A stretch of DNA of 32,000 nucleotides from Edaphobacter aggregans (GCF_003945235.1 NZ_RSDW01000001.1:960001-992000); one strand, 5' to 3'; shown: positions 10,699 through 31,537, counted from the first letter of the stretch. Notes: generated by a model from the sequence alone, not told the origin. Numbers and translations: made by a program.

Positions 10699-10750
10699 CC
10701 CCAGGCGGTCTCTTCACAGCCCCGTTCGAAAATGGAATACTGATCCCCAC

Positions 10751-11509: not shown

Positions 11510-11524
11510 ACCTCTGCCACAAAG

Positions 11525-11554
11525 GAAGGCCCGCCATCTTCAAGGCGGGCCTTC
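11525..11554 (+). terminator. stem-loop after tpiA
   Basis: Perfect 11-bp stem GAAGGCCCGCC / GGCGGGCCTTC with an 8-nt loop. The U-tract is weak. Confidence 0.55.
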
Positions 11555-11589
11555 AGTACGGCGCTCCGGAGTCATCCGCGTTCTCTATT

Positions 11590-12363: not shown

Positions 12364-12380
12364 GTCCTATTCCTCACCCA

Positions 12381-13424: not shown

Positions 13425-13626
13425 CTTACAGGCGCTCTTCTATCGACGGTCAGTCAAACATTGAACCTCATCCGGCGTACAAAATCGACCTGCCTTAAAT
13501 TCGTATCGACAAGTATTTCAAAGTGAGGTATCCACTCCAATTCTGCTCAGTCAACATCAATGTTTTCTTTCCGCATCTAACAGCGATAGGACTAGAATTG
13601 CACATGTAGTGCAGCAGGATCTTCAT

Positions 13627-14598
13627 ATGGCAACCCTCACAATGATCGAGCAGGTCTCAACACCAAAACACGTCAGCAATCGAGGTCTGTCCGACCTCCA
13701 GGAACTCACCACCGAGACGGCAAACGCCGCCTCCGAAGGCCTCGATACCAAGTCTGCCATCGAGATCGCCCGCATCATCAGCCACGAAGACGCCAAGGTC
13801 GCCGCCGCCGTTAAGAAGGCGCTCCCCGAAATAGCCATCGTTATCGACACCGTCGCCCGATCCCTCCGTGATGGTGGCCGTCTCATCTACGTGGGCGCCG
13901 GCTCCAGCGGGCGCATCGCATCCCTCGACGCCTCCGAGTGTCCCCCGACCTTCTCCACCGCCCCCGCACAGGTTCAATACATCATGGCCGGCGGCCCCAA
14001 GGCACTTGCCTCCGCATCTGACGTCAACGAAGACTCCCCCGAACTCGGCCAGCGCGACATCGCACGACGGCGCCCCACCCGCAAAGACATCGTCATCGGC
14101 GTCTCCGCCAGCGGTCGCACCCCTTACGTCGTCGGCGCAGTCGAGTACGCACGCGCCCGTGGAGCCAAAACCGCCGCCGTCACCTGCAACCTCAACACCC
14201 CACTCGCTGACGTCTCCGACACAACCATCATCGCCGAGGTCGGCCCCGAGGTCATCTCCGGCAGCACACGCATGAAGTCCGCCAGCGCACAGAAGATGAT
14301 CCTCAACATGATCACCACCGGCGCCATGACTCGTCTCGGCTACGTTTACGACAACCTCATGGTCAACGTGCACATGAAGAACGCGAAGCTCGTCGAGCGC
14401 GGCATCCGTGTCCTCATGAAGGTCTGCGACATCGACCGCGACACCGCCATTCGCACCATCAAGTCCGCGGGCAAATCCATTCCCATCGCTGTTGTCATGC
14501 TCAAGGCCAACGTAGACAAGATGGAAGCCGTCCGCCGTCTCGCCAAGTCCGACGGCAACGTCCGCCTCGCCATTGACGACTCCAGGTTAGAGCTGTAG
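13627..14598 (+). CDS. murQ: N-acetylmuramic acid 6-phosphate etherase
   Basis: SIS-domain protein with TETANAASEGLD, YVGAGSSGRIA, GVSASGRTPYV and SGSTRMKSASAQKMILNMITT. The alternative GTG start at 13609 would add 6 aa. Confidence 0.92.
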   Translation: MATLTMIEQVSTPKHVSNRGLSDLQELTTETANAASEGLDTKSAIEIARIISHEDAKVAAAVKKALPEIAIVIDTVARSLRDGGRLIYVGAGSSGRIASLDASECPPTFSTAPAQVQYIMAGGPKALASASDVNEDSPELGQRDIARRRPTRKDIVIGVSASGRTPYVVGAVEYARARGAKTAAVTCNLNTPLADVSDTTIIAEVGPEVISGSTRMKSASAQKMILNMITTGAMTRLGYVYDNLMVNVHMKNAKLVERGIRVLMKVCDIDRDTAIRTIKSAGKSIPIAVVMLKANVDKMEAVRRLAKSDGNVRLAIDDSRLEL

Positions 14599-14980
14599 TC
14601 AGTATCTACCCATTTTTGCTGAAGCCCGCACCTCTTTTGCCAGATTCGACCGTCTATAGGTAAGTACGACCGAGTCGCCCATGAAAATTCGTAACATCAC
14701 ATATCACGATCTCCGGACAATGTTCTCCGCTTGCGCCGCCTTGGCCGCAGTGCTCTTTTGCGACGAACGAAGACACTTCACTATCGTCCCTATGCATCCT
14801 TCATCCTGGCTCGTTGCGACACAGCATCGCTGTGGCCTGCTCGCGATCGCAATGTTAATGTGGTTCGTTTGTGAATCAACAGTCAACATCTGCCTCGGCA
14901 TCACTGCGCTAGGACCTCATCGCAGCTAATGAGCCACGCTTTCGGCTGAGAATCATCCGCGAATATAGAAGCAACACCAT

Positions 14981-16062
14981 TCATCCTGCACTCAGACGAA
15001 CTCGCAGAGACTCCGGCGACCGAAAACCCGCGCCGCCGCGCCATTCTACAGGCTCCACCAACGCCGCCCCGGCAAACCGCTTCAACAACGATAGGTAATC
15101 GTAACGGCCGCCATACGAATCAGACTCGCGCCTACGCACGAGTGTGAACCAGCGCCTAAGGCAAAGTGCCCTGTGCTCCTACGCGTGACGTAGATCTCAT
15201 TCGCGTCAAAAAAATAGTTCGGGTCACGCTTCGCCGCAATAATCCTTAAAATGACGCGGTCTCCCTTGCGAATAAGAGTCCCGTTGAGGGTCACATCCTC
15301 TGTCGCTCTTCGGAACAGGACCCGCACCAGTCCGGCATACCGTAGCAACTCCTCGACCGCCTGTTCCATCAGTTCAGGATGCCGGTGCAGCAAGAGCCAC
15401 TCTTTCGGACGTTGCATGAGCGCAAACCACGCGTTTCCCAGGATGCAGGACATAGTCTGCGACAAAGCGACGAACCCTGAATCACGCAAGGCCGCAGGTC
15501 CCGAATGAAAGCACTTCTGAAGCGCTGCATTGGCAGCCTTCGCACAAGGCTGTAAAGCCCTATCGTACGGATCGGCCGAAGCCACCGATATCCGCTGGGC
15601 TTTTTCCTGAAGACGTTCAGCATCCTGCAGAGAAATGCCTGTTACCGTCGCCGCGAACGAAAGACAAAGCGGTCGCGCATAATCTCCTATCAGATCTACC
15701 GTCTCTTTATTCCAAGACAATCAGCCAGAGCATGTACCTCCAGTGTTAGTCTCTCGCGCCACACACGCAGATGAGTTGGAGTAAACGCCTCCCAACGTGT
15801 CCACCCGCACCTTCAAGCGGACGCTTTCGTCGGACGGCTCAGAAGCCTCGTTATGAGGCCCGCATGGAGAAAGAACAGCAGACCGAAAAGCCGCCAGGAC
15901 ATCCGCATGCCTACTTAGCACACATGCTCCGAGGCCGCCATCAAAGTAAGGAGCCTCGATCTCCGGAGGACAAGCAGAGTCAAATTGATCGCTGCTCCAG
16001 GCAGGTATCGAAGCTTCCTCTCGTCTCGCCAGCACACGCCTCCCGACAAAGGTGAGGCTCAC
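14981..16062 (-). pseudogene. cytochrome P450, disrupted by an in-frame TGA and a frameshift
   Basis: ExxR (EELLRY) and the heme loop FALGAGSHSCVGASL are present. An in-frame TGA at 15721-15723 splits the two track ORFs. After ...AAVTITYRC* the expected C-terminus LSLLKRFAGAALVEPVEWRGGAGFRSPESLRVRLSAG* continues in another frame to 14981, placing the frameshift near 15085-15100. At about 360 codons the gene is short for a P450. Confidence 0.7.
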
Positions 16063-16655
16063 AGCATAGCCAATCGTTCAGCGCGGATTGTCAGCAACTT
16101 GTAACGTTCTGGTCATCCGCCGCCACTATCCGCCTTCCTGTCGTTGGCGACGACAAAAGGTCGTTCTTCATTCACATGACACACATTCTGAACGGCAGCT
16201 ATCGATGTGACTTCTTCAAACTCGCGAACCAGACGAACTACTCGATTCTTTCCCGCACGTCATCCCCGCTTGGAAAGGTCTGTGTGAGCCGATAGTTTCG
16301 GCTCACGTAAGCCTGAATGGGGGAATTGACGAGGGGCCCAAGTCTAAACCCAGCCATCACCTTCAATTCCCATCGTGGGCGGCTTCATCATCGGGCGGGA
16401 GTCCGGATTTCAATCCACCGACAAGACCGACGCAACATCTTCGACGCCGTTTCATCGCGACTAAGATGGGCTAATCGCGCCACCGCTTAGCGACGGCTAC
16501 TGCTAAGGTGAAATCCTCCGAAGTACCCTCCGCTCTTGTACCGGTGAATTGCAAAAATCTGCACATATCGCCCAACTGCAACATTCTCCAGGAAACCGCG
16601 TCTATTCCCTCAGAAAGCGGCGACGCAAACCGAGCCGCGACAAGGAGCAGCACTC

Positions 16656-17069
16656 ATGAAGCGAATTCTCCTCTCAGCATCTCTCGCTCTCGCCCTCTCT
16701 GGCGGCCTCGCCTTCGCCCAATCGGCCACAACCCCTGCCCCTGAGGGAAAGCACTTCCACCATCACCGTCCTAACGCCCAGCAAGAGGCCGCCTGGCTCA
16801 GCACAAAACTCAATCTCTCTTCCGACCAAACTGCAAAGCTCGAACCCATACTCGCCGACCGCGACCAAAAGATGAGCGCATTGTGGAGCAACACCTCACT
16901 CAGCCCGGACGAAAAGAAACAGCAGATGCGCACCCTTCATCAGGATCTCAAGCAGCAACTCTCCACAGTCCTCACACCCGACCAAATTGAACAGATGAAG
17001 TCCCTGCATCACGGCCGTCGCGGTCCGCACCATCCTCAATCCCAGACCGCCCCGCCTTCGGGCCTCTAA
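16656..17069 (+). CDS. periplasmic Spy/CpxP-family (LTXXQ-motif) protein
   Basis: Signal peptide MKRILLSASLALALSGGLAFA. LTXXQ-like repeats LSSDQTAKL and LTPDQIEQM. His-rich ends. AAGGAG RBS. Confidence 0.75.
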   Translation: MKRILLSASLALALSGGLAFAQSATTPAPEGKHFHHHRPNAQQEAAWLSTKLNLSSDQTAKLEPILADRDQKMSALWSNTSLSPDEKKQQMRTLHQDLKQQLSTVLTPDQIEQMKSLHHGRRGPHHPQSQTAPPSGL

Positions 17070-17190
17070 CGAAACAGGGCAACAGAAGAAGCTGTCAAGC
17101 CCCAAACCCCGTAAGCCTATGCTAATAAACGGGATCGACATGGCATATGAATTACCTCCAATTCAGTAGAATAGAAACAGAAGAAATAAA

Positions 17191-17219
17191 GAAAGCCCCG
17201 GCCATCCGGGGTTTTCTTT
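17191..17219 (+). terminator. rho-independent terminator
   Basis: GAAAGCCCCGG / CCGGGGTTTTC stem (one G-U pair), loop CCAT, followed by TTTTCTTT. The A-tract upstream means it could act in both directions. Confidence 0.65.
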
Positions 17220-17237
17220 ATGGTCGTATAACTCGTT

Positions 17238-17326
17238 TGAATAGAATACTTTACATGTAAAATATCTATAATGAATACTTTACGGAAAAGTTATTCCATA
17301 AACTATTGAAAATGGATACTTTATGG
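17238..17326 (+). promoter_or_regulatory. AT-rich region with three direct repeats RGAATACTTTAY upstream of murA
   Basis: GAATACTTTAC at 17244-17254 and 17273-17283, and GGATACTTTAT at 17314-17324. Spacings are 29 and 41 bp. Confidence 0.5.
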
Positions 17327-17412
17327 GAACAGTACAGGGAAGGGGTACCAGTACAAAATTCAGAACCAGCCAAGCCACTCATTTCCACGCCAAATCCCCG
17401 TAAACTCTCATA

Positions 17413-18699
17413 ATGGATAAGTTTGTAGTACGCGGCGGTAATCCCCTTCTAGGCACCATCAAAGTCTCCGGAGCCAAAAACTCCGCGCTCCCCTGCATGG
17501 CCGCCGCCATCCTCACCGAGGACGAAGTCATCCTCGAAAACATCCCTCAAGTTAGGGATATTGAGACCGAACGCAAGCTCTTGGCCAGCATGGGAGCCGA
17601 GGTCGAATTAGGCTACGGCCGCGCCCAGCACCGCACCCGCATCCGCTGCGCCGTCCTCTCCGATCCGGTCGCCAAGTACGAGATCGTCAAGACCATGCGT
17701 GCCAGTTCCCTCGTCCTCGGGCCGCTCGTCGCCCGCACCGGCATCGCCCGAGTCGCCATGCCCGGCGGCTGCGCCATAGGAGGCCGCCCCATCGACCTCC
17801 ACATTAAGGGCCTCGAAGCCATGGGTGCCACTATCACCCAGGAGCACGGCTACCTTGAAGCCCGCACCGACCGCCTGAAGGGGGCCCACATCGTCTTCGA
17901 CAAAATCACCGTCACTGGCACCGAAGACCTCCTGATGGCCGCCACCCTGGCCGAAGGCGAAACCGTCTTCGAAAACTGCGCCCGCGAACCTGAGGTCACC
18001 GACCTCGCTGCTCTCCTCACCGCCATGGGAGCAAAGATTGAAGGCGCGGGCACGGGTACAATCCACGTTCAGGGCGTGAGCAAGCTGCACGGTGCTCGCC
18101 ACCGCATAAACCCCGACCGCATCGAAGCCGGCACCTTCCTCATCGCCGGAGCCATCACCGGCGGCGACCTCAACGTCGACTGCTGCGAGCCAAAGCACCT
18201 CGGTGCCGTCATCTCCAAACTGGAGCAGTGTGGCGTCAAGCTCGACGTCGGCACCGACAACATCCGTGTCCGCTCCGGCGACGCAGCAGGTCTCAAGGCC
18301 TCCGACATCTCCACCGAAGAGTACCCCGGCTTCCCCACTGACATGCAGGCCCAGTTCATGGCTCTGGCCACCCAGGCCGAAGGCACCACCACCGTCACCG
18401 AAAACATCTTCGAAAATCGCTTCATGCACGTCCAGGAACTTATCCGCATGGGCGCAAACATCACCGTTGCAGGCCGCACCGCCACCGTCCGCGGCAAGAC
18501 ACCCCTCCAGTCGGCGGCGGTCATGTGCTCTGACCTCCGCGCCTCTGCTTCCCTCGTCCTCGCCGCCCTAGTGGCTGACGGAGAGACCATTCTCGATCGT
18601 GTCTACCACCTCGATCGAGGCTACGAACACTTCGAAGAGAAGCTCCGAGGGGTAGGCGCCCAGATCCGCCGCATGGGAGACGTCTTCGGCAAGAAGTAA
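17413..18699 (+). CDS. murA: UDP-N-acetylglucosamine 1-carboxyvinyltransferase
   Basis: [27 protein letters not shown], the active-site Cys loop [14 protein letters not shown], and a C-terminal [17 protein letters not shown]. Confidence 0.97.
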
Positions 18700-18709
18700 T
18701 TTATTTCCG

Positions 18710-19190
18710 TTAAAACGCTGCAAGCTCTTTGCGATATAAGAACGCATCCAGTCCCGCGACACGATAGAATCGGCGCCGCACCCCATGCCGGCTATACCCC
18801 AGACGCTCGTAAAAGCGGATCGCACCCTCATTCCCCGTAAATACGTGCAGCGCCATTTGCTGCACACCCATCGCCCCCGCGCGACTCTCTGCTTCCAGCA
18901 TCAACCTCGACGCAACACCTTCCCGTCGATACGTCTCCGCGACATCCAGAGTCACCACATATCCTTGCAACCCGGTCGTCCCGAAATCGAGATGGACGAT
19001 TACAAATCCAGTGATGCCGCCGCCACCTCTCTCGGCGATCAGACAGATTGCATTTCGCGCCTCCGCGAACTCCTGCATCGACTTCCGACCAAAATCGAAA
19101 TGCCGCCGCAAAACAATCCTCGTCCAGCCGGTAGATGGCCTCCAGGTCAGTCCGGCGATACTCCCGAAGAACAGTCTCCCCTAGGCTCAT
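18710..19190 (-). pseudogene. GNAT-family N-acetyltransferase interrupted by a 1-nt frameshift (pseudogene or homopolymer sequencing error)
   Basis: The N-terminal part MSLGETVLREYRRTDLEAIYRLDEDCFAAAFRF is in the frame of track ORF 18828-19298. The rest, GRKSMQEFAEARNAICLIAE...RREGVASRL...FYERLGY, is in the frame of ORF 18710-19111. The switch maps to one of two A4 runs, 19091-19094 or 19110-19113. Confidence 0.7.
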
Positions 19191-19500: not shown

Positions 19501-22500
19501 CTAGAAGTTGATCTTCGCGGCAAACTGAAGCTGACGGGAAGATCCAGCGTCGCCAATCGCTCCGCGGGTCGCCGTAATATTGCCGAAGCTCGTGCTTCCT
19601 GGTGTCGCCGTCAGGTTCGGATTACCGAAGTTCGACTGGTTGAAGACGTCGAAAGCGTCCATCCGCAGTACGAAGGCTACATTTTCAGTAATCCGTGTGG
19701 TCTTCTGCAACGACATATCGGTGTCCGAGAAGCCCGGTCCGGTCAAGGAGTTTCGCTGCATCGTTCCAAAGCCAAGCGTAGGAGCATAGAACACACAGCC
19801 CGCGGTTGGCGTCGAGCATGCCGATCCGACTATATAAGGAATACTGAAGTTGGCTAGTGCAGTATGGAAGCCAACGCTCGGCGTGCCCAATAGCGAAGGT
19901 CGGATGTTACCCGAAGCTCCCGTATAGGTAGAACTCGTAACGACATTCAAAGGATTGCCACCCTGGATCTGCGTCACGTTCGCCACCAGCCAGCCGTCCT
20001 TCAGGCGATTGCCCTGAAACGGCAGGTTCCATATAGCGCTCAATACGAAGTGATGACGAACATCGAAGTCCGACAGACCATAGCTTCCGGCCGGATTGAA
20101 ATTATCCTGCACGCCATTGCCCGACTGTGAATTCTGGTCCATTGATTTCGAGTAGGTGTAAGTCGTGTTGAACTCAAGCCCTCGGCGCAACGTCTGACGG
20201 AATGTAAGCCACATAGCGTTATAGCTCGACATACCCGAGTAGTCGTTATAGGTAATGTTCCCTAGCGAAGTCCCTGCAGGAACACCTGGACTTGTCCCAA
20301 ATCCAGGCCCCGCAACCAATGTCTTCGGATACGGACGGACACCCGTTGTAGCACCGGGCGCGTAGGTGAGCTGGTTGATATTCCTGTTCAGGCGAAGGTG
20401 CCGTCCCCCTGATCCGATGTAGCCAACCTGCAGCGCAGCTCCGTGCCCGAGATCCTGCTGCACATTCAGGTTGTAGGACAAGACGTATCCGTTCTTAAAG
20501 TTCGGATTTACGGAGCTGGGATTGAGTCCAGAGGCCGCAGCGCTTGCAAACGCCGTCGCGACGGAAACCGAAGTCGTCTGCACTGGCTGTGAAAGCGGCG
20601 GATTTGTTGTCAAACCCGTCACATTACTGATGATCGGCTGGTCAACCATATATCCGAAGCCGGCGCGAACGATAGTCTTAGTCTTGCCCATCACGTCGTA
20701 GGTAAAACCCAGCCGCGGTTCATAGTTATTGTTCTGTTTATAGGGCTGGTTCACCTGCTTGAATCCAACGATCGTTGGATCAAAGGTGATGAAACGATGA
20801 CCGCCTTCAGCCGGCGTTCCGTTCCATTCGTAGCGGAGACCGTACTCCAAAATCAGGTCAGGCCTGACCCTGTAGGTGTCCTGAACAAAAGCGCCTACAG
20901 CGCTAATGAAGATTCGGCTGCTTACAGGATTCACGCCATTGGCGGCGAAGGAATTTGCGAGGCCGTTGATGAAATTCTGGGTTGTACTGAAGCTGATAAC
21001 GCCGGCGGTATTCGAGAAATTGCTGCCTATGAACCGGCGGAACTCGCCTCCAGTTTTAATGGTGTGCTTGCCCTTGACAATGGTCAGTGTGTTGGAGAGA
21101 ACGCCCGTCGTTACAAAGCGTCCCTGGGGAAAGCCGGAGGGCCCGCCGAAGTTGAGGCCCAGGTCGCTCACTGTTATCTGAGGCAAACCGATCGGGATGG
21201 TTACACCATTCGGGATTCCGTAGTCGCTTGAGAGTGCCGTGAAATTAGGTGAGAAATTGATGGCGATGCGATTGAAGCCGAGACGGGCCTCGTTCACAAC
21301 GTTCGGAGAGAAGATGTGAACATCGTTGATAGTGCCGATCTGTCGGTGAGCTGTGCGATGGTCGCCGAATCCTGCGATTGTATTGCCCTGAAGGTTCGGT
21401 TCGGTGCGCGCGTCCTGCTGCCATGCATAGTACAGATGCAGCGAATTTGCCTTCGTGAGAGTCGCCAGCAGATCACCACTGTACTGATCGGTCTTCACCG
21501 GTCCAGGCGATGAGCCAGTGGCCACTGCTGTGGTAACGCCATTAGTCGTTGATTGGACACCAACTGGAATGAGATTGATGAGCTTTGCATAATTTGCGCC
21601 AATTGGGCTTGCCGCAAAGGCTGTACGTTGCGCGGCGTTCGGCACCTGGCTGGTGAGCAAAAGCGCCTGCGTCTGACGCAGCCCTTCGTAGCTGACGAAG
21701 AAGAAGAGCCGGTCCTTCATAATAAAGGGCACGGGCCCGCTGAATGCTCCGCCAAAATTATTGCGGATGAACTGATTCTGTCGCGATCCTCGGCGGTTAA
21801 AGTAGTTGCGCGCATCGAAATAGTTGTTGCGCAGATAGTTAAATGCTTCACCGTGATACGTGCTCGCACCCGAGCGCGTCGCCACATTAACCACCGAGCC
21901 CGAACTGCGGCCATACTCCGCACTGAAGGTTGAGTTAATGAGCTTAAACTCAGAAGTGGTGTTGATAGAGGGCTGGAAGGTGATCTGGTTCTGAGTCATG
22001 TCGTTCAGGTTGATGCCGTTGATCTGGAAGTTATTTGCGTCTTCCCGAGCACCAGCAGTATTGAACGAGTTTGCGCCGAGGCCACGGCTTGTGCCGGTGA
22101 GAAAGCCGTTCGCCGGCGCAACGACAGCGCCTGGAGTCAGGTTGGTAAGGTCAAGGAAGTGTCGCCCGTTCAGTGGTATATTTTGCACCGTGTTCCGGTC
22201 GATAACCTGCCCCATCGTCATGGTTTGCGATTCAATCTGACTCGAAGCAGCTTCCACCTGAACCGTCTCGCCGGCTGAACTGACTGCGAGGGCCATATTG
22301 ACCGTCACTTGCTGGTCGACGCCCAGAGTCACTTTCTTCACTGTAAACAGGCTGAAGCCCGACGCTGCGGCCTGTACTTGATAATCGCCAGGCTCAAGGG
22401 AAGGAACAACGTAGACGCCTGCATTGTCAGTTACGATGACACGCTCAATTCCAGTCGCGAGAGAGTGCACTGTTATACGCGCGTTCGGCACTACAGCCCC

Positions 22501-22623
22501 ACTTGGATCAGTCACAGTTCCAGCCAACGTCGCTGTCGATTGCGCCAACCCCGAACCCACACTTACCAGCACCAGAACAACAAGAGCAAACAGACCCTTT
22601 AGGAACTTTACTGAGTACTTCAT
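19501..22623 (-). CDS. TonB-dependent outer-membrane receptor with an N-terminal carboxypeptidase-regulatory-like domain
   Basis: Signal peptide, then TATLAGTVTDPSGAVVPNARITV (CarboxypepD_reg-like), then a plug and a long beta-barrel ending in the aromatic AAKINF. AGGAGG RBS. At 1040 aa the architecture is typical of Acidobacteriota. Confidence 0.92.
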   Translation of the reverse strand: MKYSVKFLKGLFALVVLVLVSVGSGLAQSTATLAGTVTDPSGAVVPNARITVHSLATGIERVIVTDNAGVYVVPSLEPGDYQVQAAASGFSLFTVKKVTLGVDQQVTVNMALAVSSAGETVQVEAASSQIESQTMTMGQVIDRNTVQNIPLNGRHFLDLTNLTPGAVVAPANGFLTGTSRGLGANSFNTAGAREDANNFQINGINLNDMTQNQITFQPSINTTSEFKLINSTFSAEYGRSSGSVVNVATRSGASTYHGEAFNYLRNNYFDARNYFNRRGSRQNQFIRNNFGGAFSGPVPFIMKDRLFFFVSYEGLRQTQALLLTSQVPNAAQRTAFAASPIGANYAKLINLIPVGVQSTTNGVTTAVATGSSPGPVKTDQYSGDLLATLTKANSLHLYYAWQQDARTEPNLQGNTIAGFGDHRTAHRQIGTINDVHIFSPNVVNEARLGFNRIAINFSPNFTALSSDYGIPNGVTIPIGLPQITVSDLGLNFGGPSGFPQGRFVTTGVLSNTLTIVKGKHTIKTGGEFRRFIGSNFSNTAGVISFSTTQNFINGLANSFAANGVNPVSSRIFISAVGAFVQDTYRVRPDLILEYGLRYEWNGTPAEGGHRFITFDPTIVGFKQVNQPYKQNNNYEPRLGFTYDVMGKTKTIVRAGFGYMVDQPIISNVTGLTTNPPLSQPVQTTSVSVATAFASAAASGLNPSSVNPNFKNGYVLSYNLNVQQDLGHGAALQVGYIGSGGRHLRLNRNINQLTYAPGATTGVRPYPKTLVAGPGFGTSPGVPAGTSLGNITYNDYSGMSSYNAMWLTFRQTLRRGLEFNTTYTYSKSMDQNSQSGNGVQDNFNPAGSYGLSDFDVRHHFVLSAIWNLPFQGNRLKDGWLVANVTQIQGGNPLNVVTSSTYTGASGNIRPSLLGTPSVGFHTALANFSIPYIVGSACSTPTAGCVFYAPTLGFGTMQRNSLTGPGFSDTDMSLQKTTRITENVAFVLRMDAFDVFNQSNFGNPNLTATPGSTSFGNITATRGAIGDAGSSRQLQFAAKINF

Positions 22624-23008: not shown

Positions 23009-24070
23009 ATGACAGCAAAGACGACTATCCCTGGCACAGCCAAGCCAACGACCCTGAAGATCCTTGCCGAGTATCTCGATCTTTCTCCCGCTACGGTCTC
23101 GATTGTTCTTAACGACTCCCCCGTAGCCAAGTCAATTTCGCCTGCCACCCGCCAACGTGTCCTCGCCGCTGCCAAGAAGTTTGCCTATCGGCCGAACATG
23201 CACGCACGGATGCTCCGGACCCGCCTCACCAATACTGTTGGCGTCATCGTGCCGGAGCTCAGTGAAGGGTACTTTACCAACGTCATGCTCGGTGTCGAGC
23301 AGTTGCTGCTGCAGGAGGGCTATCTTTACTTCACCGTTAGCCATCTCTGCCGTCCGGACCTCATCGAAGAATATCCCGAACTGCTCATGAATCGCGCCGT
23401 GGACGGTTTTCTCCTCGTCAATACCGAGTTACGCAACAAAGTCTCTCTGCCTGTTGTCGGAATCTCATCGCACAGCAAGACCCCAGGCGTCACCAACGTC
23501 GAACTCGATCATAATCGCGCCACCAAGATGGCTCTACGCCACCTCTACGAGCTCGGCCACCGGCGCATCGCCTTCATGAAAGGTCAAAGCTACTCCCTCG
23601 ATTCGGAGGTCCGCTGGCACACTATTGCCAGCATCGCTCAAGAGATTGGAATCACCATCCGTCCTGAACTCTGCATCTACCTCGAAAAAAACTCCTGGTC
23701 ACCCGAGCTCGGCTATCCTCCGGTTCGCGACCTGCTCCAGCGGACACGTGATTTCACCGCCATGTTCTGCTTCAACGACACCGCTGCAATAGGCGCCATC
23801 CGCGCCATCGAAGACGCCGGTCTCAACTGTCCTCGCGACATCTCCGTTATCGGCTTCGACGACATTATCGTGGCCGAGTACTTCAACCCTCGTCTCACCA
23901 CCGTTCGTCAACCGCTTCACAAGATGGGATGGACCGCCGCGCAACTATTGATCAAGCGCATCCAAGCGCCCGAGGCCCCTTACCCCGAGACCGTCTCCTT
24001 CGAACCAGAGCTTGTCGTCCGCGAGTCGACCGCCGGTGTCCCCAAAAAATCAGCGCGCAGCAAACACTAG
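23009..24070 (+). CDS. LacI-family transcriptional regulator
   Basis: N-terminal HTH TLKILAEYLDLSPATVSIVLND ... ATRQRVLAAAKKFAYRPN, then a periplasmic-binding-protein-like sugar-binding core. Confidence 0.92.
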   Translation: MTAKTTIPGTAKPTTLKILAEYLDLSPATVSIVLNDSPVAKSISPATRQRVLAAAKKFAYRPNMHARMLRTRLTNTVGVIVPELSEGYFTNVMLGVEQLLLQEGYLYFTVSHLCRPDLIEEYPELLMNRAVDGFLLVNTELRNKVSLPVVGISSHSKTPGVTNVELDHNRATKMALRHLYELGHRRIAFMKGQSYSLDSEVRWHTIASIAQEIGITIRPELCIYLEKNSWSPELGYPPVRDLLQRTRDFTAMFCFNDTAAIGAIRAIEDAGLNCPRDISVIGFDDIIVAEYFNPRLTTVRQPLHKMGWTAAQLLIKRIQAPEAPYPETVSFEPELVVRESTAGVPKKSARSKH

Positions 24071-24079
24071 CAGGCCGTT

Positions 24080-25285
24080 TTGCACCGACTTCAACAATCC
24101 GACCGATCTCCAGAACTAGAGCCGGCGTTGGGCAGCAGCGATCCTGTCGCCATCTGGGCTTTCGCTCCTATTTTTCTTTATTTTGTCGTGGCTGGTATCG
24201 CTACGGTCATGCTTGGACCTCTGCTGCCCGGCCTTATCTCTCGCTGGAATATTCAGGATGCCCAGGCTGGAACACTCTTCACCGCTAGCTTCGCGGGGCA
24301 GTTTATAGGCGCATGGTTTGCTGCGCGGAGCCTTCGTGCAAGCGTCGTGTGTGGTGCCGCTCTTAGCGCAGTTGGGTGCGTCGCTATGGCATGGGCTAAC
24401 TTCGATGTTGCCCACCTCGCACTCTTTTGTGTCGGTCTTGGTCTTGGCGCAGGACTCACTGCGGGAAATATTATCGTCGGAACTGCTCGTTCTATAAGCC
24501 GCGCGCGGCTTTTGTTGATGCTCAATGTTTCCTGGAGCATCGGAGCCATTTCCTGCCCACTGCTGGTGCGTGCATGCCTCTCGGCTGGTATGAGTCTCTT
24601 CTTTCTCATACTCTCATCGGCACTGGCGGCGGCAACCTGCTTGTTGCTCGTAATTCCGCGTCATGCGTTCGCATCCCCGCGCAGCATCTCGATTCCTGAA
24701 CAACGTGAATTCCGGCGCGCACCTTTACCTTTCGTTCCTCTCGTTGTTTTTGCTGGTGTTCTTCTGCTGTATGTCGGGGTCGAGAATGCGTTGGGAGGCT
24801 GGCTGCCTAGCTATGCCGCGCGGGTGCATTATTCGCTTCAGCCGTCTGCGATTGCGTTCTCCTTCTGGATCGCGGAGCTTGCAGGGCGTCTTATGGGCAC
24901 TGCGCTTCTCATGCAATTGAGTGAGCGTGTGCTTTATTTGCTTTGTTTATCGGCTCTTATCTTTGCTGGGGTCGTGCTGTGTGTGGCGGGGAATCTGTCG
25001 GCGGGTGGGATTGTGGGGCTTACGCTTCTGAGTGGGATGGCTATCGGGCCTGTTTATCCGCTGCTTGTTTCGTTCATGCTGGCGCGGACGGGACAGCATC
25101 CTCGGCTTGGCTCTCTGTTTGCTTCGGCTAGCCTGGGCGGGGCTAGTTTGCCCTGGCTTACAGGGGTGGTTTCGACGCATTTCGATAGTCTGCGGGCGGG
25201 GCTTATTGTGCCGGCTGGCGGGACGGTTCTGATGCTTCTGCTCTCGCCTGTCGTCACTCAGGTTTTCGCGAAGGACGAGGTCTAA
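24080..25285 (+). CDS. MFS transporter (likely sugar-type; 12 TM)
   Basis: Twelve hydrophobic spans with a central loop, starting 9 nt after the LacI stop. The start is uncertain: TTG 24080 or TTG 24128, with no early ATG. Confidence 0.85.
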   Translation: MHRLQQSDRSPELEPALGSSDPVAIWAFAPIFLYFVVAGIATVMLGPLLPGLISRWNIQDAQAGTLFTASFAGQFIGAWFAARSLRASVVCGAALSAVGCVAMAWANFDVAHLALFCVGLGLGAGLTAGNIIVGTARSISRARLLLMLNVSWSIGAISCPLLVRACLSAGMSLFFLILSSALAAATCLLLVIPRHAFASPRSISIPEQREFRRAPLPFVPLVVFAGVLLLYVGVENALGGWLPSYAARVHYSLQPSAIAFSFWIAELAGRLMGTALLMQLSERVLYLLCLSALIFAGVVLCVAGNLSAGGIVGLTLLSGMAIGPVYPLLVSFMLARTGQHPRLGSLFASASLGGASLPWLTGVVSTHFDSLRAGLIVPAGGTVLMLLLSPVVTQVFAKDEV

Positions 25286-25286
25286 G

Positions 25287-25473
25287 GCGGTAATTTTTGC
25301 GCGTTTTTTTCTGTGTGGTGTTTCTTCGTTTTTGCTGGGGGTTTTGGCAAAAACGGTGACAGAATGTGGTGGTTTTGTGGTCAATAAGCGGCAAAAAGTC
25401 TGGCAAAGGTGGTTTGCGGACGGTCACTTTCCGGCGACGAAAAACTTGCCACCTGTTCTGTGGAAATCTGAAA
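25287..25473 (+). repeat. copy B of the ~190-nt intergenic repeat family
   Basis: It fills the entire gap between the MFS stop and the nadK stop. It aligns to the reverse complement of 11590-11784 and partly to 1943-2000. Confidence 0.6.
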
Positions 25474-26328
25474 TTATTGTTCGCCCCAGCTTAGCTTGTT
25501 TCGGAGGACGTTGAAGAGGCCGTTGGGGCGAGGTCGGAGGAGATGCACACTGTGCTTGGAACGGCAGCAGTTGATCTCGTCGCCGACGTGGAGTTCCACG
25601 GCTTCCTGGCCATCGACGGTGAGAAAAGTGTTGGGGACGCCGTCCATGTGGATGGTGATGGTGGAGTCGCCGGGGACGACGATGGGCCGGATCGTCAGCA
25701 GGTGGGGACAGAGGGGCGTCACGACGAGGGCGTTGACCGTGGGCATGACGATGGGGCCGCCAGCGGACAGATTGTAGGCAGTCGAGCCGGTGGGGGTCGA
25801 GACGATGATGCCGTCGGCGCGCATGGCGGCTACGAACTGGCCGTCGATCTCGACGGAGAAGTCGGCCATACGGGCGATGGAGCCCTTGGAGACGGCGATG
25901 TCGTTGAGAGCGTCCCAGCGGCGGAGAACCTCGCCGTTGCGGCGCAGCTCGGTGTGCATCATATCGCGCACTTCGATGCCAGCGCAGTTGGCGCACCATG
26001 CCTCAAGGGTGGTGTAGAGGTCGGAGAGAGGGATCTCGGTGAGGAAGCCGAGGGAGCCGAGGTTGATGCCGAGGATGGGCGTGGGAGAGTGCGCAAAGGC
26101 GCGGGCTGCGGCGAGAAGCGTGCCGTCGCCACCGAGGACGATGACGAGGTTGGGTCTGTGCCGCGGGAGCTCGGAACGCTCGATGGGGTTCGGGTCGTTG
26201 ATGTAGGCGGCGCTATCGGGGTCGAGGAGACAGCGATAGGCGTGGCCTTCGAGCCATGTGATGAGTTCGCGCAGGATGACGGCGAGCTCGGGCTTCTGCG
26301 GCTTGGAGATGATGGCGGCCTGGAGCAT
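25474..26328 (-). CDS. nadK: NAD(+) kinase
   Basis: VLGGDGTLLAAAR, NDIAVSKG and ADGIIVSTPTGSTAYNLSAGGPIV. Confidence 0.95.
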   Translation of the reverse strand: MLQAAIISKPQKPELAVILRELITWLEGHAYRCLLDPDSAAYINDPNPIERSELPRHRPNLVIVLGGDGTLLAAARAFAHSPTPILGINLGSLGFLTEIPLSDLYTTLEAWCANCAGIEVRDMMHTELRRNGEVLRRWDALNDIAVSKGSIARMADFSVEIDGQFVAAMRADGIIVSTPTGSTAYNLSAGGPIVMPTVNALVVTPLCPHLLTIRPIVVPGDSTITIHMDGVPNTFLTVDGQEAVELHVGDEINCCRSKHSVHLLRPRPNGLFNVLRNKLSWGEQ

Positions 26329-26385
26329 TGATGTCTAGTGTAACGGCTGGGATGGGAAGATCGGTGACGCCAGCTCGCTGCTTTC

Positions 26386-27840
26386 TCAATTTGGGCTAGT
26401 GTTCTCTGGCTGCTGTCCGGGTCCTTGACCGCCGAGCCTGAAGTTGACGGTGATTTGCGTTTCCACTTCGATCGGTTCCCCCTTGAACGAATAGGGAGGA
26501 TATTGCCAGGTCTTAGCTGCGTCTAGCGCTGCCTGCCGCAGGAGCTGCGGTCCTGAGAGAACCCTGAGGTTTTCGATGGCGCCTTGCCTGGAAATCGTAG
26601 CCTGAAGAACGACCGCGCCCTCAATATGGGCTGCCCGAGCGACTGTGGGATACTCGGGAGTCATTCCGCTAATCCGGTTACCAATCATGTCAAACGGCAC
26701 GCTCAATTTGCCATCGACGAGCGTTGGGTTGATGGAGGACGTATGTGCCCTTCCTTTTGCAACCATATGGGCCGTCATTGCCATGGCATAACCGTTCTCA
26801 ACGCTGCAGGGTTTATCTGGCACAATTGGCTTGCCCATGAAATCGCGAGACGGACCTGGAGGGGCTGCATTTATTTGGATTGCCTTTTGATCGATTGCTC
26901 CTTTTGTCTCTCGAGCAACATCCATTTTTTTGGCGGCTTCTGACCAATCCGGGATCAATGCTCCACTGTCCTGCAGCTTGGATGTGCAGATTCCTGCTTT
27001 GAGCCCCCGCAATGCCTCCGACGTGAGGGTGCAGAACGCTGAGCAGGCCGGAGGGTCGCCGCAATCAGCAGAGGAACTCCCGCTTTTGCATGCCTGGTAC
27101 TTCGCGTAATTCCGCACACACGACTTGGCCGGCTCCGCGCAAAGTTCCGCGAACCGCTGATTCAAATCGCTGAAGAGCGCCATCGCTTCCGGTGGATCTG
27201 ACACTGTAGGCTGGTTCTTCGGAGTAACTCCGACTCTTATCCGTGCTGCGATGTCGTTGATATGCCTGGAAACCGCGTCGAACTGAGTCAAGCTCTCTTT
27301 AAAGTCGCGATACTCGCCTTCTAATTGCGTTGACTTCTTTGTATCTATCGGGGAAGTGCCCGGCGTGCATCCGAGACAGATCGACTGAAAGGCAAATCCG
27401 TAAGTTCCTTCCTTCGTGCGAAGCGCTGCCACCGCATGTGGGGCGTCGTATTGAAAGACGGTTTCCTTTGAGGGTGCGTCCGGCATAAGACTGGTGTTTT
27501 TGGAATCGTTCGGGATAAATCGGACGAGCGAGGCCGACACCATAAATACGCCGGCTACCGGAACTGTACTCTTGGCACTACCACTCACCATCTGTGCTTG
27601 CGCCATTAATGCTGGCCAACATAACGCAGGAGTCGTATCTGTTGGTGATGGGGCGCTACCGGCATGGGGAGCGTTCCCAAGAGGCATTTTGCAAGGAAAC
27701 ACATAATGGAAGTATCCCGGAGCTTCTTCATAGCGTGCCGCCACGCCTCCCGAAAAGAAGGCCGGCTCCTGGGCCATAACGGTGTCGATCTCGAAGAGAA
27801 CGAAGAACAGCAAGAACGATACCGCCGTACTCCATTTCAT
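26386..27840 (-). CDS. secreted protein with a C-terminal TonB_C domain and a large Cys-rich N-terminal region of unknown function
   Basis: The C-terminus PEYPTVARAAHIEGAVVLQATISRQGAIENLRVLSG..LRQAALDAAKTWQYPPYSFKGEPIEV matches the TonB C-terminal fold. The ATG at 27840 (GGAG 7 nt upstream) gives the signal peptide MKWSTAVSFLLFFVLF...VMA. The protein has 12 cysteines. Confidence 0.75.
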   Translation of the reverse strand: MKWSTAVSFLLFFVLFEIDTVMAQEPAFFSGGVAARYEEAPGYFHYVFPCKMPLGNAPHAGSAPSPTDTTPALCWPALMAQAQMVSGSAKSTVPVAGVFMVSASLVRFIPNDSKNTSLMPDAPSKETVFQYDAPHAVAALRTKEGTYGFAFQSICLGCTPGTSPIDTKKSTQLEGEYRDFKESLTQFDAVSRHINDIAARIRVGVTPKNQPTVSDPPEAMALFSDLNQRFAELCAEPAKSCVRNYAKYQACKSGSSSADCGDPPACSAFCTLTSEALRGLKAGICTSKLQDSGALIPDWSEAAKKMDVARETKGAIDQKAIQINAAPPGPSRDFMGKPIVPDKPCSVENGYAMAMTAHMVAKGRAHTSSINPTLVDGKLSVPFDMIGNRISGMTPEYPTVARAAHIEGAVVLQATISRQGAIENLRVLSGPQLLRQAALDAAKTWQYPPYSFKGEPIEVETQITVNFRLGGQGPGQQPENTSPN

Positions 27841-28142
27841 ACGCCCGCTCCGGAACAGCTGATACCACCACACGATTGACGCCAATGCTTAGTTGAAAGT
27901 GCGATTAGCATTTCACTCGATCCGAGGATGGTCAAGGTATTTCCAAAGCTCTCTGGAGAAATCGAGTGTGACGGCAGAGGCTGCGTCCTCGGGAATCGAA
28001 TGCGAGGATAGATGGTGACCGCTTCGGGCCTGTGGGTCTTAAGCTGTGCTTAAGTTTTCGCGCTGATTCGTAAACTAAAATTGACCTGCCATACATGCGA
28101 TCCCTCCGGAGATTCAATTAGTTATTGAGGCCGGAGGTAATA

Positions 28143-29852
28143 ATGAAAAATGTAATTGCTCTCCTTGCCCTCGCAACTGTCTGCTCTGCAGGCACCGCAG
28201 TCGCTCTGGACGACCACCATGACGACCACGGCAACCATGGCCGCATCAAGCGCGTTCTTTTGATCAGCATCGACGGTATGCACGCCGTAGATTTCGCGAA
28301 CTGCGCGAAAGGCATCAGTACAGTGAACAGCGGTGCTCCCTACTGCCCGGCGCTTGCTGCGCTCGGCAAGACCGGGGTGAACTATGTTGCAGCGAGTACC
28401 TCAAAGCCCTCCGATTCGTTCCCCGGTTTGACAGCGATCATTACTGGCGGCAGCCCTGCGCTCACAGGGGTTTATTATGACGTCGCTTACTCGCGGAACT
28501 ATAACGCTCCGGCGAAGACCACCGGCAACGGCGTCGCGGCTGGCTCGTGCACTCCCAACACGGCCCCGACCGGCACGACCACCGAGTACGAGGAAGGCAT
28601 CGATATCGACCAGACCAAGTTGAACGGTGGCGCTCCCGGCGCATCGCTTACCGATGGCGGTATCAATTCGATCGATTCCACGAGACTGGTGCGCGACCCG
28701 AAGAATGGCTGCAATCCTGTCTTCCCCTGGCAGTTCGTCCGGGCCAACAGTATCTTCAGCGTGATCCACAAGAATGGCGGATACGCGGCGTGGTCTGATA
28801 AACATCCGGCTTACTCGTCGGTTGCGAGCGGCATCGGCCCCTCTGCCCTCGATGACTTCTACGCGCCTGAGATCAATTCGAATGTGATTGCTCTGCCTGC
28901 CGTGCAGACGCCTACGGGCCTTTCGTGCAGCACGATTCCTGATCCCGGCTCGGACCTGACGGCCTGGACCAATAGCTTCCTGAACATCGAGTGCTATGAC
29001 ACGCTGAAGGTCAACGCGATCCTGAATGAGATTGATGGCAAGGATCACCTCGGTCAAAAGAAGACCCGGGTGCCGACCATCTTCGGTATGAATTTCCAGG
29101 CTGTCAGCGTCGGTCAAAAGCTTATTGAGAAGAGCAACAACACTAAGGGCGGTTATCTCGATGCAGCTGGAACTCCGTCGGAGGCGTTGCTGGGTGACAT
29201 CAAGTTTGTCGATGCTTCGATCGCCAAGTTTGTCGACGAACTCAAGGATAAGGGTCTCTATGATTCGACACTGATCGTGATTACGGCCAAGCACGGGCAG
29301 TCGCCGATTGATCCGAACCGCTATGTCTCTAATCTCATCAATGGCTCTTCGCCTGCGACGCTGCTCTCGAATGCGGGCTTCATTCCAGACTCTGAATCGA
29401 CCATCGGTTCCGGCATCGGGCCTACGGAAGATGATGTCTCGCTGCTGTGGTTGAAGAGCTCTTCAGATACGCTTGCCAGCGTTAAGATTCTTGAAGACAA
29501 CGCAGCCTCGATCGGGCTTGGGCAGATCTATTATGGCCCGACGGTCACGGTGAACTACAACGACCCAACTGTGGACCCGCGTACTCCGGATATTATCGTG
29601 ACCCCGAATGTTGGAGTCACTTACTCCGGCAGCACCGCGAAGCAGGAGGAGCACGGCGGGTTTGCCCATGACGACACCAATGTGATGCTGCTGGTGGTCA
29701 ACGCCGAAAGCCAACCCCAGACGATCTATGCTGAGGTTGGGACTGCCCAGGTTGCGCCTACTATCCTCAAAGCGCTCGACATCGATCCCTCGGAACTCGA
29801 TGCAGTTCGTGCTGAGGGGACCGGTGTTCTTCCGGATCTCAACCTCTGGTAG
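28143..29852 (+). CDS. alkaline-phosphatase-superfamily phosphodiesterase / nucleotide pyrophosphatase-like protein, secreted
   Basis: GGAGG RBS and signal peptide MKNVIALLALATVCSAGTAVA. LLISIDGMHAVD and PSDSFPGLTAIITGG resemble the type I phosphodiesterase metal and nucleophile motifs. HGGFAHDD lies near the C-terminus. Confidence 0.8.
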   Translation: MKNVIALLALATVCSAGTAVALDDHHDDHGNHGRIKRVLLISIDGMHAVDFANCAKGISTVNSGAPYCPALAALGKTGVNYVAASTSKPSDSFPGLTAIITGGSPALTGVYYDVAYSRNYNAPAKTTGNGVAAGSCTPNTAPTGTTTEYEEGIDIDQTKLNGGAPGASLTDGGINSIDSTRLVRDPKNGCNPVFPWQFVRANSIFSVIHKNGGYAAWSDKHPAYSSVASGIGPSALDDFYAPEINSNVIALPAVQTPTGLSCSTIPDPGSDLTAWTNSFLNIECYDTLKVNAILNEIDGKDHLGQKKTRVPTIFGMNFQAVSVGQKLIEKSNNTKGGYLDAAGTPSEALLGDIKFVDASIAKFVDELKDKGLYDSTLIVITAKHGQSPIDPNRYVSNLINGSSPATLLSNAGFIPDSESTIGSGIGPTEDDVSLLWLKSSSDTLASVKILEDNAASIGLGQIYYGPTVTVNYNDPTVDPRTPDIIVTPNVGVTYSGSTAKQEEHGGFAHDDTNVMLLVVNAESQPQTIYAEVGTAQVAPTILKALDIDPSELDAVRAEGTGVLPDLNLW

Positions 29853-29878
29853 ACAGCTCACAAGAACCATGACAGTTG

Positions 29879-29911
29879 ACGGACGCTCTTTCACGGAGCG
29901 TCCGTTATTTT
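29879..29911 (+). terminator. rho-independent terminator between convergent genes
   Basis: 10-bp stem ACGGACGCTC / GAGCGTCCGT, 7-nt loop, then TATTTT. Confidence 0.7.
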
Positions 29912-29941
29912 GTTGCGGTGGATTTCGCTGACTCGTTGCTA

Positions 29942-31537
29942 CTAGGTGATCTTTAGTTCCATAGCCACGATCGCGCGTTGTGGAATTGAAATTTCTACTC
30001 TGTTGTTGCGAACAACGACCGGGAGAGCGGACAGCTTGATTTCATTCGGCCTGTCCAATGTGTTGCCCGCGGTCATTTCTGTATGCGTCAGAATAGTTCC
30101 CTTCCCTTCGGTGATGCTGCCGCTCGTGAGTCGAATTTGCGCGGCGACGGGTGCGTCTAACGATGGGTTGGTGAGCGTCACGGTCAACGTTTTTTCTCTC
30201 ACGGATGCGGAGCCCGACAGTCCGGGAATGGTTGCACTGCCACTTCGCGATGGGACCTTCAATTCGTCAGCGCGGATGTTCATTGCGGCGAGCTTCGATT
30301 GCATGTGGTTGCGATACATCTCGAAGACGTAATAGACCGGGGTGCGCGCGAAACGATCGCCCTGCGCGAGGAAAAGAGAGTGGATGCAGTTGATCGTCTG
30401 GGCCACATTTGCCATTGCGATTTTGTCTGCGTGCCGATTGAAGACATCGAATGTGACGGCTGTGTGCAGCGCGTCGCGGAGCGTCAGCGGCTGGCTGAGT
30501 ATGTACGCCGGGGTGATCTCTTCACCGGGGCGATACCAGACGCCCCACTCGTCCACGATAAGTTTGGTGTGGCGATCGGGATCGAACTTGCCCATTGCGG
30601 CCCAATGCTGCTCGATGACGGTTTCTGTGCGCAGGCCCTCGCGAATGACGTCGTACCAGCCTCGTGCGTCGAAGGTCGATACCTTTTCCGGGCTGTTTCT
30701 GAAGTCGGTGTAGTAGTGGATGGAGAGGCCGTCTACGCGTGTTCTGTGTCCCTGCATGGCTTCAAAGAAACCGTTTGTCCACCCGAGGTCGAGGTCTTTG
30801 GAATGTCCGCGCGGACCCACGGCGATGAGAAATGGTTTGGGAGGAAATGCCGGGAATTGTGTCACGAAGCGGCGGTACAGGGAGGCATATTCCTGTGGCG
30901 TCATGTCTCCGCCGCAGCCCCAGGATTCATTCCCGACTCCCCAGAAACGCACGCCGAAGGGTTCTTTGGAGCCGTTCATGGCTCGTTCGTTTGCAAGGGA
31001 GACGGTGCCGACGGGAGCGTTGGTGTAGGACACCCAGTCGTGGAACTCCTGCGGAGAGCCCGAGCCCATGTTTGCTGCGAGGTACGGTTCGGCTCCGCTT
31101 AGCCGGCAGAGATTCATGAATTCGTGAATGCCGAAATGGTTGGGCTCGGTGTCGTCCAATCCTTGCGGCATGCTGGCTTGCCAGTAGTTGTAGGTTCGTG
31201 GCCGCCTGGATGGATCGCCGATTCCATCGCGCCAGTGATAGCCGTCCGCAAAACAGCCGCCGGGCCAGCGAAAGTTGGGAACTGCGATGCGCTTCAGGTC
31301 GTCGACGAACTGCTTGCGAATGCCGTCGATGTTGGGGATTTTTGAGTTGCGGCCTACCCAGATGCCGTCGTAGATGACGCCGCCTAAGTGCTCGATGAAT
31401 TGCCCGTAGATGTGGGGGTTTATTTCAGGGCCGGTGTCTTGAGGGGTTATTTCGATTTCGGCTGGGGCTGACGAGGCACCGGTCATCAGCCCTACGGAGG
31501 CGAAGGCGCTGGCGCGAAGAAAGTCTCGGCGATCCAT
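29942..31537 (-). CDS. abfA: GH51 alpha-L-arabinofuranosidase with a Tat signal
   Basis: Twin-arginine signal MDRRDFLRASAF. NFRWPGGCFADGYHWRDGIG and FWGVGNESWGCGG (catalytic acid/base Glu region) are typical of GH51. Confidence 0.9.
   Translation of the reverse strand: MDRRDFLRASAFASVGLMTGASSAPAEIEITPQDTGPEINPHIYGQFIEHLGGVIYDGIWVGRNSKIPNIDGIRKQFVDDLKRIAVPNFRWPGGCFADGYHWRDGIGDPSRRPRTYNYWQASMPQGLDDTEPNHFGIHEFMNLCRLSGAEPYLAANMGSGSPQEFHDWVSYTNAPVGTVSLANERAMNGSKEPFGVRFWGVGNESWGCGGDMTPQEYASLYRRFVTQFPAFPPKPFLIAVGPRGHSKDLDLGWTNGFFEAMQGHRTRVDGLSIHYYTDFRNSPEKVSTFDARGWYDVIREGLRTETVIEQHWAAMGKFDPDRHTKLIVDEWGVWYRPGEEITPAYILSQPLTLRDALHTAVTFDVFNRHADKIAMANVAQTINCIHSLFLAQGDRFARTPVYYVFEMYRNHMQSKLAAMNIRADELKVPSRSGSATIPGLSGSASVREKTLTVTLTNPSLDAPVAAQIRLTSGSITEGKGTILTHTEMTAGNTLDRPNEIKLSALPVVVRNNRVEISIPQRAIVAMELKIT

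Follow-up and report, generated by a model that had tools for sequence, protein, structure and literature searches.

Results

A compositional switch inside a sugar transporter gene

We analysed a stretch of 32,000 nt from Edaphobacter aggregans, read on one strand and referred to here as the window, with positions counted from its first letter. At issue is a reversal of strand composition that falls inside a gene for a transporter of the MFS family, between a gene for a LacI-family regulator and nadK. Genes were assigned with Pfam, applied to the window and to three related loci described below (L075, L012 and L005), and these assignments bore out the gene list of the initial annotation, which a model had drawn up from the sequence alone. 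Skews are given for the top strand, as GC skew at third codon positions (GC3 skew) or at fourfold degenerate sites (fourfold or GC4 skew). The features that frame the reversal are as follows:

1..19000, no strand: left arm, top strand C/A-rich for either gene orientation; by Pfam it carries an opuAC-permease-ABC ATPase operon, an AAA_33 kinase gene, gap, pgk, tpiA, lepB, a beta-lactamase-like gene, murQ and murA
23009..24070, + strand: LacI-family regulator (Pfam), the last clearly left-arm gene; GC3 skew -0.40, fourfold skew -0.59
24080..25285, + strand: MFS gene (FHS-type sugar:H+ symporter; Pfam MFS_1), which holds the switch
24742..24820, no strand: skew switch (support interval of the change-point), where the coding sequence enters the C-terminal half (six helices) of the MFS protein
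25300..25480, + strand: conserved, ~180-bp non-coding element lying between the stops of MFS and nadK
25474..26328, - strand: nadK (NAD kinase; Pfam NAD_kinase and NAD_kinase_C), the first right-arm gene; GC3 skew +0.58

The initial annotation had reported that the asymmetry flips inside the MFS gene, and the flip is real. The cumulative G-C curve of the window has its minimum at 24742. Consistent with this, a two-state likelihood scan of the third positions of lacI, MFS and nadK placed the maximum-likelihood change-point at 24766, 519 bp upstream of the MFS stop, with a gain in log-likelihood (lnL) of 74 and the 2-lnL support interval listed above. The switch is sharp: the support interval spans only ~80 bp and the gradient ~0.5 kb. 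Along the MFS gene, codon bins shift from C>=G to G>>C; third positions are G31 C51 A23 T55 in codons 1-160 and G75 C23 A5 T57 in codons 241-400 (Fisher p=1.7e-7 for the G/C difference). G+C content at the switch within the MFS coding sequence is 0.55-0.58. Four counts that had been made by hand proved exact: C30/G6 at 661-720, C24/G12 at 23941-24000, G30/C9 at 24961-25020 and G27/C10 at 25621-25680.

MFS homologues are annotated as FHS glucose/mannose symporters, and the gene shows ordinary synonymous turnover, with a memory (the fraction of excess fourfold-site identity retained between orthologues) of 0.29-0.38. We considered whether the central part of the MFS gene conceals a functional DNA element and rejected this, since nucleotide conservation is not raised there and the gene is least conserved in its loop-coding region.

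The bias follows the strand on both arms

Top-strand GC skew is -0.256 over 1-19000 and +0.250 over 24800-26400. In 1-kb intervals it ranges from -0.13 to -0.48 over 0.5-19 kb, is ~0 across a gene for a TonB-dependent receptor (TBDR) and -0.2 across lacI, crosses zero inside the MFS gene, and reaches +0.2 to +0.34 over 24.8-26.4 kb. To the right of that point the signal within the window is patchy (~0 over 26.4-29.5 kb, +0.1 over 30-32 kb). Hence the reversal that the initial annotation had drawn from about 24.9 kb rightwards stood for nadK and for the alpha-L-arabinofuranosidase gene (abfA), both of right-arm type, and did not hold evenly over 26.4-32 kb. Beyond the window we used L075, a 107-kb Joint Genome Institute (JGI) metagenome contig, which has 98% identity to the window and reaches 9.5 kb past its right end; over those 9.5 kb the skew is +0.254 in window orientation.

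The left arm extends over at least 24 kb in the window, and is negative over at least 35 kb in a sister species represented by L098/L103 (a 292-kb contig of a different species, with protein identities to the window of 96% for nadK, 95% for lacI and 75% for MFS); the right arm extends over at least 17 kb. The left-arm block has the same sign in L102-L106. Persistence of the two signs, which the initial annotation had named as a check, was tested at these lengths, and the signs are opposite beyond the window.

A second check named there was whether the asymmetry follows strand or gene class. At fourfold sites, plus-strand genes have C840/G98 on the left arm and C84/G402 on the right arm, the latter counted in L075; minus-strand genes have C47/G511 on the left and C983/G291 on the right. 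Both orientations are thus represented on both sides, and since genes of the same orientation are oppositely composed on the two sides, the bias is governed by strand and not by gene class.

We considered whether a mosaic of gene class, gene orientation and neutral acquired genes could mimic a flip with no change in replication direction. Within the window, the right-hand signal comes from only two minus-strand genes, nadK and abfA; the TBDR gene, a gene for a TonB_C-domain protein and a phosphodiesterase gene are neutral imports; and in two relatives, L012 and L005, the Pfam-matched genes to the right of the switch all lie on one strand. This explanation is refuted by the orientation-resolved counts above. 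In addition, L098 has genes of both orientations on both sides of its switch, and the same orthologous blocks are oppositely skewed in different species, for example in L009 and L010. We regard such an artefact as extremely improbable.

The bias is extreme for a bacterium, with a G:C ratio of ~10:1 at fourfold sites. Core left-arm genes of both orientations have GC3 skews of -0.56 to -0.84, and weaker values (-0.19 to -0.30) are found in three left-arm open reading frames (ORFs), encoding the AAA_33 kinase, a 394-aa membrane protein and a P450 fragment. The magnitude of fourfold skew per gene reaches 0.74-0.93, pgk having -0.93. Whole-sequence skew is 0.25-0.47 in magnitude (window 1-19000 and 24800-26400, L075 1-9537, L010, L012, L098 and L102-L106). 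The trait varies within this genus-level group, from ~0.03 (L007, L011) to ~0.3 (L010, L012). The G-rich strand is additionally T-rich and has a lower G+C content at third positions (GC3). Published surveys give a typical bacterial whole-strand skew of ~2.5%, and describe Acidobacteria as having 'no identifiable pattern', with a gene-strand bias of 0.50-0.53; in the extract of one survey's table available to us, Acidobacteria have the lowest mean strand-bias score (0.009) among the phyla.

The switch is shared by a clade and stays beside nadK

Relatives of the nadK locus come from Edaphobacter and other Acidobacteriaceae. In L098/L103 the gene order is murA, acetyltransferase, TBDR, lacI and MFS on one side of the switch and nadK through to tlyA on the other, with both gene orientations on either side; L101 and L099/L100 have the same arrangement. 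Four species have the intragenic MFS gradient, with the change-point 669 bp (L098), 378 bp (L101) and 690 bp (L099) inside the gene. A switch of the same polarity is found at the nadK locus of L012, where it lies 162 bp inside lolD, of E. paludis (L107) and, weakly, of L005. L005 is a weak example in that its left arm fades after 3.4 kb, in addition to the confinement of its Pfam-matched right-side genes to one strand noted above. In the window, L098, L101, L099, L012 and L005, the switch falls no more than ~1 kb downstream of the nadK stop. The genomes that carry it (these six and E. paludis) form one clade in a rough neighbour-joining tree of TlyA, NadK and an ECF sigma factor. Across ~690 kb of related loci we found no other strong flip.

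What faces nadK across the switch varies by lineage: MFS-lacI in the window, lolD in L012 and macB in L005. In L012, the flanking blocks keep the order and orientation that they have in relatives of uniformly positive (L004, L006, L010, L013) and uniformly negative (L009, L018) skew. Because the flanks of L012 are syntenic with genomes that have no switch, it would be the direction of replication that differs, and not gene order.

Between the window and the L098 species, fourfold memory is 0.22-0.58, yet GC4 skews are 0.56-0.93 in magnitude on both arms in both lineages. Full-strength skew in the face of such synonymous turnover implies a composition at equilibrium. The boundary is long-lived and evolutionarily stable.

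These comparisons bear on an alternative raised in the initial annotation, namely that the flip is an inversion or recombination breakpoint, the MFS gene being a chimera of inverted paralogues and one flank retaining the composition of its former orientation. The differing far-side genes indicate that rearrangements have ended here, and the 5' part of the MFS gene has left-arm and its 3' part right-arm composition, as a chimera would. Against this, junction and gradient are common to the four species, and both flanks have full skew despite a loss of roughly 40-80% of fourfold memory, during which the skew of a misoriented flank would be expected to decay to about -0.2 or past it. Synteny is unbroken at the L012 switch, between nadK and lolD. 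The MFS protein is matched from end to end by homologues of 75-81% identity, with no hint that it derives from two sources, and the window contains no second MFS copy or long inverted repeat. Finally, the homologous lacI-MFS pair of L106 is not near a switch, and the MFS gene in it is uniform, with C3>G3 along its whole length. We conclude that the breakpoint proposal is largely refuted, and consider it very improbable. The flip is very probably a genuine, replication-linked boundary between oppositely replicated chromosome arms.

The interval between nadK and lolD itself differs among relatives. Most (L009-L011, L013-L016 and L008) have an unannotated ORF of ~1 kb there, at about 10860-12100; the gap is only ~57 bp in L004, L006, L007 and E. 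paludis, and consists of 340-590 bp of non-coding DNA in L012 and L018 (from 10859), with REP-like repeats in L018.

A conserved TGTGG-repeat element beside the switch

The non-coding element at 25300-25480 is G/T-rich on the plus strand and contains 4-6 TGTGG (= CCACA) motifs in the same orientation. It is highly conserved, with several long runs identical in all alignment rows, between species that are only 50-65% identical at synonymous sites; by this comparison, the element next to the switch is under purifying selection. We found it at the switch in L075, L001-3, L098, L099/L100, L101 and L012, where it lies between nadK and lolD. Elsewhere in ~1 Mb of related loci, the only further occurrence is a second copy, which in the window lies as follows:

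11594..11773, - strand: second, diverged copy of the ~180-bp TGTGG-repeat element, just after the lepB stop

This copy was detected by nhmmer with E=2.5e-7 using a first model; the E=1.1e-32 obtained with a second model is not independent, as that model was built including the copy. It is kept 3' of lepB in L105/L106 (12894-13071 in L105) and is absent from L103. Each copy, including that of L012 (11020-11200), begins no more than ~20 bp past the stop of its upstream gene (MFS, lepB or lolD), and its G/T-rich strand is the locally G-rich strand.

Two functions were tried and rejected. A structured RNA is excluded by the absence of an Rfam match at gathering or permissive thresholds, folding energies of -2.7 and -0.4 kcal/mol on the two strands, and unfavourable covariation; a small ORF is excluded by interspecies indels that are not multiples of three. 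The element contains no promoter or terminator consensus and gave no match to plasmid origins. It is the only candidate for a cis-acting site near the switch, and is a candidate weak DnaA-box array or Ter-like site.

Replication origin or terminus

Under the rule that G exceeds C on the leading strand, a minus-to-plus flip has origin polarity. The initial annotation had argued in this way, and the reasoning is correct; it is for this reason that we tentatively propose that the site may well be a chromosomal replication origin region, unlinked to dnaA. The top strand passes from C-rich to G-rich at a minimum of cumulative skew, as it does at an oriC. In the mechanism that we envisage, an extraordinarily strong strand mutation bias would make the switch between leading and lagging strand visible within a single resident gene. 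Left of the switch it is the bottom strand that is G/T-rich, and right of it the top strand, so that forks would, under the universal rule, diverge from ~24.7 kb. The G/T-rich strand would be the leading strand, as elsewhere, initiation would occur at this locus, and the 180-bp CCACA-repeat element, 0.5 kb away, would take part, possibly as a weak array of DnaA boxes.

The alternative is a replication terminus, in a clade with inverted skew polarity: the leading strand would be C/A-rich, and forks would converge on the nadK locus. We regard this as doubtful. In one form of it, the inverted element copies at 11.6 and 25.3 kb would act as polar fork barriers that sharpen the switch, and loss of the element, as in E. 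paludis, would leave a diffuse zone. That the leading strand is C/A-rich and that the 180-bp element, as a polar fork barrier of a new kind, keeps a terminus next to nadK sharp seems to us unlikely.

Four points count for an origin, and each of them counts against a terminus. First, a terminus has a G-rich to C-rich transition, and the switch runs the other way in the window, L098, L012 and E. paludis; no bacterium is known with G<C on the leading strand. Second, a G+T-rich strand of lower GC3 is the signature expected from deamination of the lagging-strand template while it is exposed as single-stranded DNA. Third, freely colliding forks would not produce a switch as sharp as 0.5 kb, and the barrier role of the element is purely conjectural. 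Fourth, there is no dif-like site within +/-10-20 kb: in the window and related loci the best matrix score was 9.6 bits, equal to the maximum in shuffled sequence, compared with 36-39 for real sites, and a search for the dif palindrome pattern within that distance gave matches at chance level only. Acidobacterial dif sites are reported to be recognisable with the Firmicutes profile.

Further difficulties for a terminus are that the switch lies 0.5 kb off the element, that the 11.6-kb copy is missing in the sister species, and that a replichore imbalance of 65:35 would be implied for E. paludis. No independent marker of fork direction was found in the examined loci: tRNA genes were too few and inconsistent, genes for EF-Tu, GroEL, RecA, S12, FtsZ and DnaK were absent, and the single IS200/IS605-like match lay in a contig of weak skew.

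Several observations weigh against an origin, and several of these resemble a terminus. In E. paludis JP55, a cultured relative with a complete genome whose chromosome record is 'adjusted to dnaA' and starts at that gene, the locus lies at 2.80 of 4.32 Mb (65%), nearer the expected terminus than the origin. In this genome, which has no copy of the element, the GC3 skew climbs steadily and monotonically over ~9 kb, from -0.52 (lolCE) through -0.2 (nadK, tlyA) to +0.35 (spoU). The switch falls within coding sequences of unrelated genes (MFS; lolD in L012), at a position that differs by lineage. Lineage-specific cargo and recent imports lie beside it, in a neighbourhood that is unusually plastic. 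A terminus may also change sides of a block with no rearrangement, which would explain the synteny of L012 and E. paludis with genomes of uniform skew.

Gene orientation points the same way. Of ten essential transcription units in the examined loci, nine are on the C-rich strand: gap, pgk-tpiA, murA, nadK and tsaC, lolCDE and folE in L012, and prfB and lnt in L108. Three syntenic blocks each have essential genes on this strand, facing the switch. The essential units that flank the switch would thus be transcribed head-on to replication if the site were an origin, and only lepB would be co-directional.

The known components of an origin are likewise missing. Pfam detected no dnaA, dnaN or other origin-neighbour gene in the window, L075, L012 or L005, and tblastn with a DnaA sequence gave no match in related loci. 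No DnaA box (TTATCCACA, up to one mismatch) is present within 19-28 kb; the element contains at most 2-3 matches, with two mismatches each, and the count over 22-27 kb is 7 against 13 expected. The earlier statement that dnaA, dnaN and a DnaA-box cluster are lacking thus holds for the window and the 9.5 kb beyond it, and is equally what a terminus predicts. An AT-rich unwinding element is lacking at the switch, from which the nearest non-coding DNA, itself G/T-rich, is separated by 0.5 kb.

The element also fits an origin poorly. The switch lies beyond it by 0.4-0.7 kb in MFS or 0.16 kb in lolD, always on the side away from nadK. The 11.6-kb copy has no skew switch and is inverted relative to the 25.3-kb copy, so that the two copies stand in inverted orientation on either side of the switch, an arrangement that would fit a terminus. 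The element was not found in L005 or E. paludis, and in E. paludis the switch is displaced to the other side of nadK.

By raw count, DnaA-box-like 9-mers are most densely packed in the window at 11600-12600, in and next to lepB and beside the second copy of the element. Five 9-mers with up to two mismatches fall within 300 bp there, including TTTTCCACA at 11602; skew is unchanged.

Imported genes and other features of the neighbourhood

The remaining features of the window, with their GC3 skews, are:

19501..22623, - strand: TBDR (CarboxypepD_reg and OMP beta-barrel domains); neutral, +0.10
26351..28026, - strand: strain-variable insertion with a gene for a TonB_C-domain protein; neutral, -0.02
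28125..31537: phosphodiesterase gene on the + strand (neutral, -0.14) and alpha-L-arabinofuranosidase gene on the - strand (right-arm type, +0.37), both assigned by Pfam

The initial annotation had rightly called the TBDR gene compositionally neutral, and had wrongly described the phosphodiesterase gene as NNG/T-coded. The fourfold composition of the TBDR gene is flat (A106 C155 G170 T123), and its fourfold identity is 0.83 to L099 and 0.79 to L098 (memory 0.77 and 0.72), as against a memory of 0.19-0.38 for the adjacent lacI. This combination of high memory and flat composition implies that the TBDR gene is probably a recent import that has not yet acquired the local bias. The phosphodiesterase gene is intermediate, with a memory of 0.53 and flat composition. 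Synonymous conservation 2-4 times that of the neighbours, together with flat composition, is thus seen in the TBDR gene and, less clearly, in the phosphodiesterase gene (28125-29852), a pattern suggesting that lineages have recently exchanged these genes by recombination through the conserved genes that flank them.

The phosphodiesterase and arabinofuranosidase genes form an insertion between nadK and a conserved block running from tlyA to spoU. This block, which lies upstream of nadK, starts only past the end of the window, in L075, the inserted genes standing between it and nadK. Different lineages carry different cargo between tlyA and nadK. Within the species, the TonB_C gene is a presence/absence polymorphism: L075 has 170 bp in its place, and L001 an unrelated 2-kb gene (591 aa).

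On the left arm, a cytochrome P450 gene (14984-16062, - strand) is a pseudogene, with one in-frame stop and a frameshift near its 3' end, and is 83% identical to an intact 361-aa orthologue in L103. A 2-kb stretch of lower G+C content (0.51-0.53) at 6725-8700 has short ORFs only; its counterpart in L102/L103 contains small hypothetical genes with RidA and DUF1440, and a barstar-domain gene lies between pgk and tpiA.

Long stop-free antisense ORFs occur at 924-1979 (+), 3112-4119 (+), 8725-9732 (-) and 17608-18429 (-) in the window and at 7352-8239 in L099, as a consequence of the skew; their translations are rich in proline and histidine or in glycine, aspartate and valine. In L099/L100, the public gene call at the nadK locus is such an antisense ORF (295 aa, with no Pfam match), and tblastn finds nadK on the other strand, at 97% identity. 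Antisense ORFs are a hazard for the automatic annotation of strongly skewed genomes.

Discussion

The locus can be compared with origins that are distant from dnaA, such as oriC of Escherichia coli, between gidA and mioC, and Cori of Caulobacter. Shared with these are a switch of origin polarity at a cumulative minimum and the lack of an adjacent dnaA, and CCACA cores recur in a short, conserved non-coding element nearby. Unlike them, the locus lacks a canonical cluster of DnaA boxes, an AT-rich unwinding element and the gene neighbours that are typical of origins; its switch is in coding sequence, 0.2-0.7 kb from the element; essential genes on both sides face the site; and the distance to dnaA, in E. 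paludis, amounts to ~35% of the chromosome instead of a few percent.

With termini that have dif and a Ter/Tus or RTP fork trap, the locus shares converging genes, a plastic, import-rich neighbourhood, a switch tied to no one gene, flanking copies of an element in inverted orientation, and, in E. paludis, a location far from dnaA. It differs from described termini in the opposite sign of its skew and in having no dif-like site and no identified gene for a terminator protein.

In strength, the bias is comparable to that of vertebrate mitochondria, in which fourfold GC skew is 0.8-0.9 and one strand is G/T-rich and the other C/A-rich. A pattern of this kind would fit long single-stranded exposure of one template. 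The difference is that we are dealing with a two-arm bacterial chromosome of ~6 Mb.

GC skew is the standard means of placing origins and termini in bacterial genomes and metagenome-assembled genomes, and underlies estimates of growth rate from read depth. In the lineage studied here, which belongs to a phylum for which little or no strand bias has been described, the fourfold G:C ratio is ~10:1. The bias resolves the boundary between arms to a few hundred bases inside one gene, dates imported genes by their degree of adaptation, and misleads gene callers into antisense ORFs. If the site is an origin, it would be one that lies far from dnaA, has no recognisable cluster of DnaA boxes and has essential genes facing its forks. 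If it is a terminus, it would be the first exception to the rule that G exceeds C on the leading strand, with a strand bias as strong as that of animal mitochondria.

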